From: a bacterium
Lineage (GTDB): Bacteria > Patescibacteriota > Dojkabacteria > JAKAPS01
Direction: 5' to 3'
Assembly (NCBI GenBank): GCA_021806925.1
Contig: JAKAPS010000001.1
Location: 71,040-135,039 of the forward strand
DNA: 64,000 bases
Every line of letters begins with the position of its first letter. Positions within the stretch are counted from its first letter, which is position 1. This document shows, piece by piece, positions 53,163 to 63,974 of this stretch. The translations under genes were made by a program, and so were the position numbers. Under the pieces are notes generated by a model. The model searched no databases. It saw only the letters and a program-made list of their open reading frames with translations, and had not been told where the DNA came from.

Positions 53163-54477
53163 TAGAAACAAGAATATAGGGCAGATAATGGTTCTATCTA
53201 CTATTGTATTTTCAGCAATTCTAATAATTGTATCACTATCAATTGGTGAACTTTCTACTCAAAGCTATATTTCAACTGATAATTCAATATATTCAACACA
53301 AGCTCAATTTATTGCAGAAAGTGCAGTTGAAAATGCAATACTTGAATATGAACAGAATTCTTCATACAATGGAGGAACTTTCACAACTCCTTATGGATCT
53401 GCAACTGTAAATGTTAGTTACAATCAAACAAGCGATGAATTAACTGTAAATACAAGCTCAACAATAAAAGGTTATACAAAAAAATATTCTGTTGTAGTAT
53501 CGATTAATAACAATCCTCAAATAACAAACTATGCACTTTATTCAAACTCTTCACTGTATACAAATGACGCAAGTGTAGTAGGAAATTCATATGTAAATGA
53601 TAACTTTTATACATATTCTTCAACATTTTCTGGAAATATGCTCGCAATAGGAGCAGGAAATGGACTTGGTAATTATGCATATGATACCCAATTCAAAACT
53701 GTTTTAAATGTTAGCAATTCGGGGAATATATATGTATATAACAATACAAGAATAAAGAATTATACTTCTATCGAGAATACTACCTACTACAAGAACAATC
53801 TGTATAGTGATTCCACATCAAATTATGGAACAACAATACAAACTTCTTCACTTGGAAATCAATTAACATCTCCATCATTCAATTTTTCTCAAGCTGGAAC
53901 TCTAGCAAGCCAGAATGGAACATATTTTAATGATCTAAATGACTTTAATAATTATTTAAACTCTGTTGCTACAACTGTTAATGGTGAAACTGTATATAAG
54001 CTTCCAAGTGGAATATATTATGTTGATTGTAGCCTCTCATTTTTTGGATTCTGTATTAATACATTTAGTTTTTTAGACACTAATGGAGAAATATCTGGAA
54101 CAAATGTAAGCATTGTTTTAAATTTCCCAGTACTTTTTTATGGAAGCATAAACATTTCTTCTCCATATGAAAATAACAATGAATACTACCCTTCTCTTGC
54201 AATTAACGGATGGTCTATATTCCTAGGAACAAACAATCCCAATCAAAGCAACTATTTAATATTGAATGGATTACTATACATAAATGGAACAATTGATCTA
54301 TATGGCGTTTCAAACAGCAACACTGCAGATGTAAATGGAGCTATATGGAGTACAGACAATTTAAATTTATATAGTTATACTAACGTTGTATATAATTCAA
54401 CATATATGACTAATCTAGCTGGATTTAATTTCCCTGTTAATCAAAATTCTATTGTCAGTTGGACTGAATCTCCATGA
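53101..54477 (+). CDS. PilX-like large minor pilin / pilus-associated protein
   Basis: 458 aa. N-terminal GQIMVLSTIVFSAILIIVSLSIGEL resembles the PilX N-terminal hydrophobic helix. N/S/T/Y-rich body. Probable start about 53137. Confidence 0.5.
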   Translation: MPQMGYFHKILIMFSQIGKFNRNKNIGQIMVLSTIVFSAILIIVSLSIGELSTQSYISTDNSIYSTQAQFIAESAVENAILEYEQNSSYNGGTFTTPYGSATVNVSYNQTSDELTVNTSSTIKGYTKKYSVVVSINNNPQITNYALYSNSSLYTNDASVVGNSYVNDNFYTYSSTFSGNMLAIGAGNGLGNYAYDTQFKTVLNVSNSGNIYVYNNTRIKNYTSIENTTYYKNNLYSDSTSNYGTTIQTSSLGNQLTSPSFNFSQAGTLASQNGTYFNDLNDFNNYLNSVATTVNGETVYKLPSGIYYVDCSLSFFGFCINTFSFLDTNGEISGTNVSIVLNFPVLFYGSINISSPYENNNEYYPSLAINGWSIFLGTNNPNQSNYLILNGLLYINGTIDLYGVSNSNTADVNGAIWSTDNLNLYSYTNVVYNSTYMTNLAGFNFPVNQNSIVSWTESP

Positions 54478-59631: not shown

Positions 59632-60500
59632 TTATTCAGTTCCGGGATTCTTTGCTACTCTACCAATACCAATTGCAGATAAATGCTCATTTATCTTTAC
59701 TTTATAAAGAGCCTCTTGACTAAAATTAAAAGTAGGATCATCAATTGCTCTTGCACCTATCTTTAACTCAGTATCAATTTTTAGAAAACGAAGATTTGAT
59801 AATAATCTCTCAATTTCAGGCTGAATTTTTAATGCAACACCACGGCTCAAATCCCCAAAGTGTTGAGCAACTTCTTCAATAGTTTTGTATTTCTGTATTA
59901 AATCCTTTGCTGTTTTAGGACCGATACCTTGTATTCCAAAAATATTATCAGTAGGATCTCCTTTAATTGCCAGATAGTCTCTGTAATGAGGAGGTTCAAA
60001 TCCCCATTTTTTTATAAAATCTTTTTTTTTGTAATAAATACAGCCTCAACTCTAATATCACGTACTAGAGTAATGCGTGTGAGCAAAGTCAAAGTCGTTC
60101 GATGAAACAAATGCTCTACCATATCTTCTTGCAATTTCACTTGCCAATGAACCAATCACATCATCGGCCTCATAATTTGGAGGCTCTATCCATTCAATAT
60201 TACATCGCTCAAGAATGGCTTTAATCATTGGAAGTTGTACATACATGCCTGTATCGTGTAATTCACGAGTCGCTTTGTACTCATGCCGTTCATCAATCTT
60301 GTTTTGAATTCCCGTCTCAGAATCAAATATGATTATGATTTTTCTGGATCTACGGCTTCCGTTATTCGTCTAAGTATTGCAAAAAAGCCATAAACAGCAT
60401 TAACTTTGACACCTTTGAAATTAGCAGCTTCAGGCACACTAAAATATGAACGAAATAAGTAATTACTACCATCTACAATTAAAGTATTTCTCATAGTCAT
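59632..60500 (-). pseudogene. 5'-3' exonuclease (Pol I N-terminal/FEN-like), disrupted by at least two frameshifts
   Basis: By manual translation, three different reverse frames each carry consecutive parts of one FEN-like protein. Frame 1 has MTMRNTLIVDGSNYLFRSYF...NAVYGFFAILRRITEAVDPEKS*. Frame 2 has ...FDSETGIQNKIDERHEYKATREL...EPPNYEADDVIGSLASEIARRYGRAFVSS.... Frame 3 has ...DYLAIKGDPTDNIFGIQGIGPKTAKDLIQKYKTIEEV.... The frame changes fall at A/T homopolymer runs (about 60345-60352 and the T9 run at about 60027-60035). The ORF-track fragments 59632..59850 and 60058..60246 are pieces of this gene. Confidence 0.65.
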
Positions 60501-60848: not shown

Positions 60849-61418
60849 CTAATTTATATATTTCTTCTTAAATTTATTAACAAATCTATACATATTAGGA
60901 TCCATCTTTTGTATAGGTGTGCTTAATATATTTTCAATTGTAAGCCAATGAATGTTATAGAATTCCTCATGACTAAAATTCAAAGTTAATTCTGAATTAT
61001 ATTCTAGTGTGTACCATATACTTACATCCGTATGACCAGCCGTTAATCCAACTGTATCTGAAAAAGTTAAAAACATTGGGTTATTATCACCATTGAGAAA
61101 CTTTGCCTCTATGCCAAGTTCCTCCCCACATTCCCTACAAGCTGTGTCTTTAGGGTCTTCATTTACTTCAACATGCCCGCCAGTTGGTAATAGTAATTGT
61201 GCTTTTTTATGATCAACTAAAAGCATTTTCTTTTTTATCTTATCGTAAAGAACAAAATATGAGACCAAGTGTTTTTTGGGAATATCTGGCTTTTGTATAC
61301 GGTAAATCTCAACACCACTATCAACCCAATTCAAGGTGTTATTTATATCATCATATTCAATAGAATCATATGGATTTATTTTTTTGATTTGCTGTTTTAA
61401 GTATTCTTTACTATTCAT
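60849..61418 (-). CDS. Nudix hydrolase
   Basis: Nudix box GGHVEVNEDPKDTACRECGEELGIEA (G-x5-E-x7-REUXEEXGU pattern). 189 aa. Confidence 0.8.
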   Translation of the reverse strand: MNSKEYLKQQIKKINPYDSIEYDDINNTLNWVDSGVEIYRIQKPDIPKKHLVSYFVLYDKIKKKMLLVDHKKAQLLLPTGGHVEVNEDPKDTACRECGEELGIEAKFLNGDNNPMFLTFSDTVGLTAGHTDVSIWYTLEYNSELTLNFSHEEFYNIHWLTIENILSTPIQKMDPNMYRFVNKFKKKYIN

Positions 61419-61456
61419 TTATATATAAGTCTTAAAATGTAAACATAAAAAAACTG

Positions 61457-61531
61457 TGGAGCTGACAGGACTCGAACCTGCGACCTAATGTATGCCATAC
61501 ATTCGCTCTAACCAAACTGAGCTACAGCCCC
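61457..61531 (-). tRNA. tRNA-Ala (anticodon GGC)
   Basis: Reverse complement GGGGCTGTAGCTCAGTTTGGTTAGAGCGAATGTATGGCATACATTAGGTCGCAGGTTCGAGTCCTGTCAGCTCCA folds as a cloverleaf. 7-bp acceptor stem with the G3:U70 Ala identity pair. D-arm GCTC/GAGC. Anticodon stem AATGT/ACATT with loop AT-GGC-AT. T-arm with TTCGAGT loop. CCA not encoded. Confidence 0.85.
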
Positions 61532-61556
61532 TAAAGATACGTGTATATGTTTACAA

Positions 61557-61592
61557 CTGATTTTATATTAATACATTTATTTTTACAATACT
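61557..61592. repeat. 36-bp direct repeat copy 1 (promoter-like element upstream of tRNA-Ala)
   Basis: ctgattttatattaatacatttatttttacaatact. On the minus strand it reads agtaTTGTAAaaataaatgtattaataTAAAATcag, that is TTGTAA-N17-TAAAAT, a good sigma70-like promoter pointing into tRNA-Ala about 25 nt downstream. Confidence 0.7.
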
Positions 61593-61616
61593 ATCAATGA
61601 TATATATTTTCTTTGT

Positions 61617-62000
61617 TTATTCTACTTTAAAGTTGTCAGTTAAATGATTAAAAAGATTAAGAGTTTCAGGTAATTTTTCATATATATCTATTGCAAGAGA
61701 TTCATTATATGTGTGAGATGTTAAGTTTCGCATATCAATAATATCCAGCCATTTTGTATCGTACTGTATAACACCTCTTTTATATGCTTGTCTAAATATT
61801 TCCTTAGGAGATGAATATATTGAAACACCTTCGTATTCTTCAAGATAGGCCTTTAATAATTTCCATGATAAATCAACTGTAATTTCGAATCTTTGTATTG
61901 CACTGTCTCTAACAATATCTGTTTCAGGAATTGATAAAACATCACTGAGACGCATTTTAGCCATATTAAATTTTTCAAGTAGTATCTTTGTTTTATCCAT
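61617..62000 (-). CDS. hepT: HEPN-domain toxin (HepT / HI0074 nucleotidyltransferase-substrate-binding family)
   Basis: 127 aa. R-x4-H motif in RNLTSHTY near the C-terminus. 8-bp overlap with the upstream MNT gene. Confidence 0.75.
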   Translation of the reverse strand: MDKTKILLEKFNMAKMRLSDVLSIPETDIVRDSAIQRFEITVDLSWKLLKAYLEEYEGVSIYSSPKEIFRQAYKRGVIQYDTKWLDIIDMRNLTSHTYNESLAIDIYEKLPETLNLFNHLTDNFKVE

Positions 62001-62340
62001 TAATATATTCTATATTTTTCATAGCTACATTTTTAAAAGCTGTTGATACCGTAGCAAAATCAACGATATCTATAATATACATGGTATGAATTTCTTCAAT
62101 ATCATCTTTTATCTTCCTCATTATCTCGGGCTTTACAATGTTATTTCCATTTATACCAACATCAATATCTGAATATTCTGTTCCTCTTCCATTAACACGA
62201 GAACCAAAGAAAAAGATATTGTATTCATTCTTATTCAAATATTTATATACAATTTCTGAGATCTCTTTTTTTAGTTTTTCAACAGAATAATGCTCAAGCC
62301 TCACACCTGTTATTATATCATTTACTAATTGAAAGTTCAT
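61993..62340 (-). CDS. mntA: Minimal nucleotidyltransferase (MNT) antitoxin
   Basis: 115 aa. GSRVNGRGTEYSDIDVGI is the GS-x9-13-DxD nucleotidyltransferase motif. Confidence 0.8.
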   Translation of the reverse strand: MNFQLVNDIITGVRLEHYSVEKLKKEISEIVYKYLNKNEYNIFFFGSRVNGRGTEYSDIDVGINGNNIVKPEIMRKIKDDIEEIHTMYIIDIVDFATVSTAFKNVAMKNIEYING

Positions 62341-62410
62341 AATGCGTGTGTTCCCGCTATATCACATTTGCACTATATGAAATACATTGAGATATATATA
62401 AATGGTACAT

Positions 62411-62446
62411 CTGATTTTAGATTAATACATTTATTTTTACAATACT
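62411..62446. repeat. 36-bp direct repeat copy 2 (same promoter-like element upstream of mntA-hepT)
   Basis: ctgattttagattaatacatttatttttacaatact: 35 of 36 positions match copy 1. Same TTGTAA-N17-TAAAAT on the minus strand, about 70 nt upstream of the MNT gene start at 62340. Confidence 0.7.
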
Positions 62447-62468
62447 GCTGATTTGTATTAACATTATA

Positions 62469-63974
62469 TTGATGCCTGTTGATAATGTATACATATTGGA
62501 TTTTAACTATACATTTATAAGTTTGGGTAAATTGTCTTTGAAAAAAAATGGTACAATTGATATACAATTTATTGATTATGAAAAGATTCCTGTAAGTACA
62601 TTAACAGGAGGTGTAGTAAGAAATAGCTCTTTAGTAGAAAAAACAATACAAAAAATATTGTTAAGACACAAAACAAAAAAAAGAATATTTGTTCTTGCAG
62701 TAATACCAGATGAAAAGATATACATACAATCTCTTGATTTACCAACAATGCCTAATGAAAAGATTGAATCCTCTATTCTTTTCAAATTACAGACCCTTAT
62801 TCCTGTTCCTTTAAAAGATGTTTACTGGAATTATTACATAACAAAGAGAAATAAGAATTTCATTTCTACAATAATTTTTGCGGGAAACAAGGAAAGCATT
62901 GACTCATTTTTCATACCACTTAAAAACATTGATGTATTTCCAATTGGCTTTATAAATACATCAAGTTCCATTAGCTCATTAATTAAGGATGAAAATGCCA
63001 TAATATTTAATATTGAGGATACTCAAAGTGTAATCTCAATAAAACAGGATGGAATAATAAAATTCTCAACAAATCAACATGTAGGAATAAATGGTATAAT
63101 AAAAATACTAGATGAATCATTCAATATTGATGATAGGAAGAGTTTTGAAATAATAAAGGAGATAGGATTAGATAATGTAGATGAACAAACAAAAGGGAAA
63201 ATAAAAGATATTTTTATAGGTCTTGAAGATGATATAAGAAAGGCTTCTACAAGCACAAATATAAAAAATGTATTTGTAACAGGTCCTGGATTAATATTAA
63301 AGAAATTACTTACAGATCTTAACATTCCCGATGTAACTATTAATGAACTAAAAGTAGATAATATAAATTCTGATTTACTAAATAAATTCACAGCAATAAT
63401 AGGTTGTGCTAAATATATAAGGAAATTGCCACTTCCCGTTGTACTTCAGAAAGAGGCAAAACAAAATATATATTTTCAAGTATTTAAGGACTCTGCGGAA
63501 CAATTTCTAAAATATATTTCGTTTAACTTAATAATAGTTTCATCAATTCTTGCAATAATAATTTATTACGGAAATATCCAGAACTCATTAATTCAAGCAA
63601 GAGTAAATACACTTAATTCTGAAATTAACTTAAACAGTTCAAAATATACTCCAGAAATATCAAAATTAAATACTGCTTTAAACGGTATATCCTATGCACA
63701 AAATCAATACGTCGATTGGACTGGATTCTTAAGTCAAATGCCTTCACTTGTACCAACTGGTGTTACACTTAATACCCTATCAGTAATACCTCAAAACAGC
63801 ATTTTAACAGTTCAAATAAGCGGACTTGCAACAACAAGAGCTGATTTACTAACTTATCTAGATAAATTAGAAAATAATTCATTATATCTCTCAAACGTAT
63901 CGCTACCAATTGAATCAATACAGAATTCAAATAATATTCAATTTTCAATAAATGCAGATATTACAAAATTATGA
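62469..63974 (+). CDS. Type IV pilus assembly protein PilM fused to a PilN-like TM/coiled-coil module
   Basis: 501 aa. N-terminal roughly 330 aa is actin-like (ILDFNYTFISLG...; NVFVTGPGLILKKL). Then a TM helix (LIIVSSILAIIIYYG) and a PilN-like periplasmic segment. Confidence 0.65.
   Translation: MMPVDNVYILDFNYTFISLGKLSLKKNGTIDIQFIDYEKIPVSTLTGGVVRNSSLVEKTIQKILLRHKTKKRIFVLAVIPDEKIYIQSLDLPTMPNEKIESSILFKLQTLIPVPLKDVYWNYYITKRNKNFISTIIFAGNKESIDSFFIPLKNIDVFPIGFINTSSSISSLIKDENAIIFNIEDTQSVISIKQDGIIKFSTNQHVGINGIIKILDESFNIDDRKSFEIIKEIGLDNVDEQTKGKIKDIFIGLEDDIRKASTSTNIKNVFVTGPGLILKKLLTDLNIPDVTINELKVDNINSDLLNKFTAIIGCAKYIRKLPLPVVLQKEAKQNIYFQVFKDSAEQFLKYISFNLIIVSSILAIIIYYGNIQNSLIQARVNTLNSEINLNSSKYTPEISKLNTALNGISYAQNQYVDWTGFLSQMPSLVPTGVTLNTLSVIPQNSILTVQISGLATTRADLLTYLDKLENNSLYLSNVSLPIESIQNSNNIQFSINADITKL

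Follow-up and report, generated by a model that had tools for sequence, protein, structure and literature searches.

A toxin–antitoxin gene pair between 41-nt direct repeats beside a tRNA-Ala gene: a probable insertion with long target duplication

The window analyzed here, a 64,000-nt stretch of contig JAKAPS010000001.1 from a bacterium of the Dojkabacteria lineage, contains a small toxin–antitoxin (TA) cassette that lies between two copies of a 41-nt direct repeat, in the space between a tRNA-Ala(GGC) gene and a type IV pilus gene (pilMN). The cassette consists of a minimal nucleotidyltransferase (MNT) gene and a HEPN toxin-type gene, and its position is probably the result of “insertion with long target duplication”, an insertion mode known from complexes of restriction-modification genes (Nobusato et al. 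2000, Gene 259:99; Furuta, Abe & Kobayashi 2010, PMC2853133). An earlier reading of the same DNA (the original prediction) had posed two alternatives: either the TA pair inserted with duplication of the tRNA promoter region, or it brought its own copy of a promoter-bearing repeat. We favor the first, on the grounds that the repeat is, in the 72 kb searched, a locus-specific, two-copy sequence, that the repeats at related loci derive from the host, and that the site reconstructed without the cassette is compact; the duplication itself would be a past event read from these features, and the promoter match within the repeat is of a kind that occurs at chance density. The second is less likely, since the repeats at related loci are host gene ends and the cassettes share no conserved terminus.

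The repeat and the gene pair it encloses

The two copies of the repeat are identical at 39 of 41 positions and are spaced 854 nt apart (61552-61592 and 62406-62446). They contain the 36-bp repeat of the original prediction (61557-61592 and 62411-62446, 35/36 identical), which is borne out as part of a somewhat longer sequence. A gapped alignment stretches the similarity to about 57 nt on the side proximal to the tRNA and MNT genes, where the added part has an identity of only about 12/17; the 41-nt core is 95% identical, compared with about 70% in the adjoining sequence. The first copy (R1) begins 24 nt past the HEPN stop codon (61617) and lies 20 nt from the 5′ end of the tRNA gene, and the second (R2) lies 65 nt upstream of the MNT start codon (ATG at 62340) and 22–25 nt from the start of pilMN. 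Both genes are enclosed, as originally described, with margins (24 and 65 nt) that make the bracketing approximate and not precise. The features of the locus are as follows.

61552..61592, no strand: R1, repeat copy 1, 41 nt, between the HEPN stop codon and tRNA-Ala
62406..62446, no strand: R2, repeat copy 2, 41 nt, in the spacer from the MNT start to the pilMN start, with 39/41 positions as in R1
61593..62405, minus strand: putative inserted segment, 813 bp, with edges placed at the repeat edges
61993..62340, minus strand: MNT, antitoxin-type gene, 115 aa (PF18765, PF01909; GS-X10-DID)
61617..62000, minus strand: HEPN toxin-type gene, 127 aa, HI0074 family (PF08780, TIGR01987; RNLTSHTY)
61560..61588, minus strand: promoter-like TTGTAA-N17-TAAAAT in R1, facing tRNA-Ala, 9/12 match
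62414..62442, minus strand: promoter-like TTGTAA-N17-TAAAAT in R2, facing MNT
62436..62464, plus strand: promoter-like TTTACA-N17-TAACAT, facing pilMN, 9/12 match
61456..61531, minus strand: tRNA-Ala(GGC) (ARAGORN; Rfam RF00005, 65.3 bits)
62469..63974, plus strand: PilM-PilN fusion gene (pilMN), type IV pilus assembly, right-hand neighbor of the presumed target

With up to three mismatches allowed, the 36-mer is found at two sites only in the 64-kb window, and at none in 100 dinucleotide-preserving shuffles of it. The search space was extended to 72.3 kb with 8.3 kb of the same contig from the public assembly, with which the window agrees exactly across a 12,008-nt overlap. In these 72.3 kb the repeat pair stands out (E = 7.7e-14, blastn-short) and there is no third copy, the next best hits being two partial 18/19 matches within coding regions. 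The original prediction had raised the possibility of further copies of the 36-mer, as members of a repeat family; the same two copies are all that this search space holds. The partial matches, to the repeat core (TATTAATACATTTATTTTT), lie at 54054-54072 of the window and at 64550-64568 of the extended sequence, the latter 570 nt past the window end, and 10 mononucleotide shuffles gave none; they are probably a by-product of coding rich in isoleucine, phenylalanine, leucine and asparagine in AT-rich DNA and not copies of the repeat. When a 24-nt core of the repeat was compared with a collection of genome contigs, the single match was in an unrelated Bacillota metagenome-assembled genome, with neither a tRNA nor a TA gene, and is a chance match; a collection of viral contigs yielded no match.

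Between the repeats, the putative inserted segment is laid out as a 65-nt leader, MNT, HEPN and a 24-nt tail, with no other genes or gene remnants. The two genes are co-oriented, with MNT upstream, and overlap by 8 nt, in agreement with the overlapping pair originally proposed. The HEPN protein matches PF08780 (E = 6.9e-30) and scores 96.6 bits against TIGR01987 (the HI0074 family), above the cut-off of 55.8; against the NCBIfam HepT_toxin equivalog it reaches 22.8 bits, below the cut-off of 60. Likewise, the MNT protein scores 36.7 bits against the NCBIfam MntA_antitoxin equivalog (cut-off 60) and matches PF18765 (Polbeta, 3.7e-10) and PF01909, both above their cut-offs. Because the HepT/MntA equivalog scores fall below cut-off while TIGR01987 passes, these profiles place the pair in the HI0073/HI0074 branch of the HEPN/MNT superfamily, as neither a strict HepT/MntA ortholog nor a member of the DUF86/HepT branch. 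The label “mntA-hepT” used in the original prediction is therefore apt at the level of the superfamily, whereas the family is that of HI0074 (TIGR01987/PF08780).

Both proteins carry the expected catalytic signatures. In HEPN, the motif R91-N-L-T-S-H96-T-Y98 corresponds to RX4HXY, and R91, H96 and Y98 are invariant across 34 homologs; in MNT, GS-RVNGRGTEYS-DID corresponds to GS-X10-DXD. These two motifs, RX4HXY (the ribonuclease (RNase) site plus the AMP-accepting tyrosine) and GSX10DXD, are the defined signatures of the type VII system HepT/MntA (PMC7641770). The pair shares them with type VII systems, along with the MNT-then-HEPN order and the overlap of the genes, whereas it differs in lying below both equivalog cut-offs and in that its toxicity and AMPylation are predicted activities. 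Taken by itself, the TA system is unremarkable for this very common superfamily.

The original prediction had also seen a near-consensus promoter in the repeat. Both copies carry the sequence TTGTAA-N17-TAAAAT on their minus strand, facing tRNA-Ala from R1 and MNT from R2, and the -10 element ends 28 nt ahead of the mature tRNA 5′ end in the former and 73 nt ahead of the MNT ATG in the latter. Furthermore, a -35-like element for pilMN (TTTACA, 62436-62441) lies inside R2 on the other strand, overlapping the minus-strand -35 element, and the corresponding -10 element (TAACAT) lies in unique sequence, 7 nt ahead of an ATG at 62472. Nonetheless, “near-consensus” overstates what is a 9/12 match at chance density: in 3 kb of 30% GC DNA, hexamer matches of 9/12 quality number 25, against 23.2 ± 5.2 in shuffled sequence. 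On sequence grounds, a promoter function of the repeat is plausible.

The reconstructed site and the repeats at related loci

Deleting 61593-62446 leaves an 83-bp divergent intergenic region between tRNA-Ala and pilMN. The repeat allows only 20 nt of further space toward the tRNA gene and 22–25 nt toward pilMN, and any promoters in this region must therefore overlap the 41-mer. In the course of events that we propose, tRNA-Ala(GGC) and pilMN would first have been divergent neighbors about 83 bp apart, with the central 41 bp (R) holding the core promoter of the tRNA gene, from its -35 element to about +1, and also carrying, on the opposite strand, the -35 element of the pilMN promoter. The 813-bp segment, with MNT and HEPN as its only genes, would then have entered this spacer with duplication of R. 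After such an event tRNA-Ala would keep its promoter in copy 1 and pilMN would keep its own in copy 2, while the TA operon would now have a copy of that tRNA promoter, placed 65 nt ahead of its start codon. There is no terminator-like site after HEPN, and so the TA transcripts would probably read through into the tRNA gene. The two repeats could also let the cassette loop out again, carrying one copy with it. Campbell-type integration of a circle bearing a short host segment would give this structure, and repair of widely staggered breaks would give the same one. The order of these events, the promoter activity and the biochemical mechanism of the duplication are what we infer, with the repeat, the gene identities and the enrichment described below as the observed basis.

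The first clue from elsewhere came from two loci resembling those of the Candidate Phyla Radiation (CPR) among the relatives of this HEPN gene, in which a direct repeat occurs in both flanking spacers. A survey was made of the 80 further loci most similar to this HEPN, fetched by an alignment-based metagenome scan, mostly from groundwater and sediment metagenomes and with genes called simply as open reading frames (ORFs). For each, the 200 nt upstream of MNT were aligned locally with the 200 nt downstream of HEPN, and a score of at least 36 was taken as positive; the window locus scores 73. Direct repeats at this threshold bracket 13 of 65 non-redundant MNT-HEPN loci (20%). By comparison, 1 of 65 loci was positive when the same flanks were inverted, 1 of 600 when flanks were paired across different loci, and 3 of 140 when the test was applied to other genes or gene pairs of similar span, from the same loci and 72 kb of this genome. 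Two of these last three are themselves TA pairs, one of MNT with a HepT-like gene and one a HicA pair. The gene order of MNT then HEPN is kept in 79 of 84 related loci.

The bracketing repeats are 26–115 nt long in the 13 positive loci, and their spacing, with two weaker aligned cases included, is 747–1030 nt. Their sequences are unrelated from locus to locus, and no terminal sequence is common to this cassette and the related ones. In at least six loci (L073, L055, L018, L023, L079 and L019) they are instead copies of the ends of host genes, as listed here.

L073: last ~51 nt of clpP (C-terminus)
L055: last ~32 codons of the upstream ORF (C-terminus)
L018: end (C-terminus) of a convergent gene
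L023: three copies of a prgI-like gene's N-terminus, with a HicAB pair and the MNT-HEPN pair set apart by them
L079 and L019: lipoprotein signal-peptide region

In the clpP case, two related organisms can be compared. L073 has an intact clpP, then the cassette, then a clpP 3′ fragment, and L046, from an organism related to that of L073, has a 38-nt clpP 3′ remnant, then the cassette, then an intact clpP. A reading of the two as a reciprocal filled/empty pair was withdrawn, as the cassettes (71% nucleotide identity) are about as diverged as the flanks (78–80%). It is more economical to derive both from a single ancestral clpP-TA-clpP arrangement, in which at least 0.6 kb was duplicated and from which each lineage lost a different clpP copy. 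Under either reading, the bracketing repeats are duplicated host sequence and were not borne by the cassette. Repeat lengths as they stand today are therefore minimum estimates.

Several observations weigh against the proposed insertion at the tRNA-Ala locus. The composition of the insert is indistinguishable from that of the host (GC content 27.6% compared with 29.5 ± 3.4%, with similar values at third codon positions), and the collections searched held no near-identical cassette, the closest HEPN relatives being at most 58% identical; neither measure gives an independent sign of recent acquisition. Neither a TA-less orthologous locus nor a close relative of the organism was found: exact look-ups of PilMN and of the neighboring NUDIX hydrolase returned the same four contigs, all with the TA pair, so the single-copy empty site is a reconstruction from the filled locus and not a demonstrated state. 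In the survey, L046 and L073 are the only related pair with differing arrangements and, as explained above, are better read as something other than a clean filled/empty pair. Likewise, chance alone gives promoter hexamers as good as these in AT-rich DNA. Finally, the search for further copies covered 72 kb of the genome, and the repeat may belong to a dispersed family of low copy number.

Parallels and competing explanations

The closest known parallel lies in the restriction-modification gene complexes mentioned above. Their insertions are flanked by direct repeats of more than 30 bp, measuring 46–47 bp in H. influenzae and T. thermophilus and reaching more than 400 bp in Helicobacter; these repeats occur nowhere else in the genome, in many cases span the start or stop of translation, and are accompanied by no mobile-element genes (PMC2853133). 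The mechanism is unknown in that case, and the authors suggested DNA breakage by the restriction enzyme (PMC2853133). The present locus resembles these in being a small “addiction” unit without transposase or integrase, in having direct repeats of more than 30 bp (41 bp here, close to the H. influenzae and T. thermophilus values), and in that the repeats are host sequence often spanning gene starts, stops or regulatory regions. There are differences as well. Whereas the restriction-modification repeats are unique genome-wide, the repeat here is known as two copies in 72.3 kb; whereas a single-copy empty site in a related genome is part of the published definition (PMC2853133), the site here is known from the filled locus alone; and the cargo is an RNase-type TA pair, not a DNA-cleaving restriction system. 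As the toxin is of the RNase type, insertion driven by the element’s own DNA breakage cannot apply here. In a literature search of limited reach, this mode of insertion was cited for restriction-modification systems only, with no TA report, and no reports were found of flanking direct repeats around HEPN/MNT or other TA systems.

Chromosomal TA pairs are considered highly mobile, but there is little documentation of how a two-gene module on its own, with no transposase or integrase, gets into a chromosome. The tRNA-Ala locus offers a concrete footprint, in which tens of base pairs of the target would be duplicated with the neighboring genes and their promoters kept intact, and about one fifth of 65 related loci show a comparable one. 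This suggests that small TA cassettes enter chromosomes by the same unexplained route as restriction-modification units. If so, “insertion with long target duplication” would extend from restriction-modification to RNase-type TA systems, which would weigh against explanations relying on DNA cutting by the element. At this locus, a copy of a tRNA promoter would drive the TA operon, with probable co-transcription of tRNA-Ala, and, more speculatively, TA expression would be tied to control of the growth-rate type. One can also imagine a broader pattern, which we advance tentatively and as a possibility that falls short of probable: that TA cassettes of several kinds (HI0074-type MNT-HEPN, HicAB, MNT-HepT and AbiE) in small-genome, mostly groundwater CPR-like bacteria are mobile without a recombinase of their own, by way of long target duplication. 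On that view, repeated insertion at one site would build integron-like arrays of TA pairs parted by copies of the target, and, the toxins here being RNases, the mechanism would have to be some general pathway of the host, of which addictive gene pairs make use or which they withstand.

Among the other explanations, it is worth considering that the repeats might be the attL and attR sites of a site-specific recombination event, left by a larger element that has decayed down to its addictive TA pair or by a small cassette mobilized in trans by a recombinase encoded elsewhere, in the manner of a cis-mobilizable element (CIME). Direct repeats of this size beside a tRNA gene are typical of integrase-mediated integration, and the locus shares with tRNA-linked integrative elements and CIMEs the direct repeats around an insert in this position. 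In addition, integrating elements restore host gene ends with a copy that they carry, which would mimic host-derived repeats, and when an element decays its TA pair is expected to outlast the other genes. We nonetheless consider this unlikely. The repeat is located 20–61 nt upstream of the tRNA gene, on its 5′ (promoter) side, instead of spanning its 3′ end; within ±10 kb, Pfam shows no domain of an integrase, a transposase or another recombinase; and the 0.8-kb insert is almost exactly two genes, with no remnants of others. Beyond this locus, the unrelated repeat sequences would need many different recombinases, and their lengths vary from 26 to 115 nt over 13 loci.

Quite unlikely, in our estimate, is a second possibility, in which the 41-mer is a regulatory module that was copied for its own sake, so that the TA pair and tRNA-Ala respond together, or that was brought by the cassette. 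It is true that both copies face a minus-strand gene at a plausible promoter distance, that both mismatches fall outside the four hexamers, and that the drop from 95% identity in the core to about 70% in the adjoining sequence is compatible with selection on both copies. However, two mismatches would spare 12 hexamer positions about half the time by chance, no terminal sequence is shared with related cassettes, and we know of no mechanism that copies just 41 bp to a site 854 bp away. The related loci argue in the same direction: in several of them (L007, L018, L023 and L053) a convergent gene has its 3′ end toward the downstream copy, where a promoter would be useless and the repeat is therefore a by-product.

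A third explanation, that the TA pair is ancestral at this site and that the repeat arose from a later local duplication or gene conversion unrelated to TA mobility, seems to us improbable. It fits an insert that is not compositionally foreign, and the lack of a closely related cassette elsewhere in the collections searched. What it leaves unexplained is the coincidence of the repeat edges with the cassette ends, and the bracketing of 20% of related cassettes compared with about 1–2% of other genes.

We see very little chance that the repeat is a pair of paralogous plus-strand mini-ORFs (MFTTDFILIHLFLQYYQ at 61548-61601 and one with the ending ...MKYIEIYINGTSDFRLIHLFLQYC, which stops at 62451). 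The same frame is open through both copies, and at L004 and L007 the repeat truly consists of paired, conserved ORFs of 22–23 codons on the opposite strand. At the window locus, however, both nucleotide differences are non-synonymous (T->S and I->R) and the start codons, which the repeat does not include, are not conserved, and on these grounds the mini-ORF reading was rejected as unlikely; moreover, the peptides are too short for a membrane span, and short ORFs rich in phenylalanine, isoleucine and leucine arise by chance at 30% GC.

Last, an integron-type gene cassette with attC repeats, a reading suggested by the frequency of TA pairs as integron cargo, by the likeness of small promoter-less or TA-bearing units lying between similar sequences, and by related loci (L023 and L033) that form arrays of small cassettes separated by the same repeat, is effectively refuted here: the 41-mer folds at -0.2 kcal/mol (z +0.57 compared with shuffles), neither full spacer has hairpin potential (z +1.83 and -0.91 compared with shuffles, DNA folding), 41 nt is shorter than known attC sites, the 41-mer has no GTTRRRY/RYYYAAC cores, there is no integron integrase nearby, and the repeats of the related loci are copies of host gene ends.

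Neighboring genes and other small cassettes

The host of the locus has a GC content of about 30%, type IV pilus genes, and DUF4012 and TMEM260-like proteins, and rnpA, yidC, dnaA and dnaN lie within a few kb of the cassette; it has the look of a CPR-like bacterium with a small genome. The right-hand neighbor joins PilM and PilN domains in a single protein of 500 aa. A public protein collection groups this protein with unrelated fragments of 45 aa, one of which is the cluster representative, which explains why a homolog search with PilMN came back empty, and a metagenome scan with PilMN recovered no relative. No Shine-Dalgarno-like sequence precedes pilMN, MNT or the NUDIX gene, and a leaderless pilMN transcript is possible, because the -10-like hexamer ends 7 nt ahead of the ATG.

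On the other side, tRNA-Ala adjoins the NUDIX hydrolase gene (60849-61418, minus strand), for which no homologs above 57% identity were found. Its best matches are spread over widely separated lineages, among them Alphaproteobacteria, Francisellaceae and an archaeon, which suggests horizontal acquisition; the neighborhood of tRNA-Ala may therefore be variable on both sides. Immediately past the NUDIX gene, where coding density is low (~59.1-60.8 kb), two short minus-strand ORFs of 55 and 62 aa (60058-60500; also L001, 11841-12283) both match PF02739, the N-terminal domain of the 5′–3′ exonuclease. This pair looks like a fragmented, pseudogenised polA-type exonuclease gene.

Some of the surveyed loci contain more than one small cassette. 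At L023, the copies at 982-1044, 1589-1654 and 2444-2487 each correspond to the first ~20 codons of the prgI-like gene, and the locus forms an integron-like TA array (HicB/HicA plus MNT-HEPN) made up with repeated copies of the start of a host gene; L025, which is related, is without the HicAB unit. The repeats of L033 (1651-1765, 2525-2619 and 3680-3708) and L087 (79-187 and 1045-1141) are of another kind, 95–115 nt long with an 8-nt periodic motif, GRRTTAAC in L033 and GTNAAGT / GACTYAAC in L087, where the arrangement is partly inverted. No host gene ends are recognized in either set, and those of L033 stand between the MNT-HEPN pair and a DUF6922-AbiEii pair. This second pair, a type IV TA system, adjoins HI0074-type MNT-HEPN at several CPR-like loci (L004, 1711-2561; L007, 1753-2599; L033, 2707-3632), directly upstream in the first two and downstream in L033. 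With genes for a NUDIX protein and a nucleoside deoxyribosyltransferase also nearby in L004 and L007, this setting may represent a recurrent small defense or TA neighborhood.

In L007 (2600-2690 and 3420-3493) and L004 (2560-2690 and 3400-3500), an ORF of 22–23 codons lies on each side of the TA genes, on the opposite strand. Their hydrophobic peptide products end in GWWK(R/K)(R/K), as in MKTIALIIFLIVGWWKRRKGRSR and MFFVYKILWIYLFVGWWKKKTKT. Between L004 and L007, the changes in the conserved downstream ORF are mostly synonymous, a pattern that marks it as probably a real gene for a small membrane peptide, and the peptide may be toxin-like.

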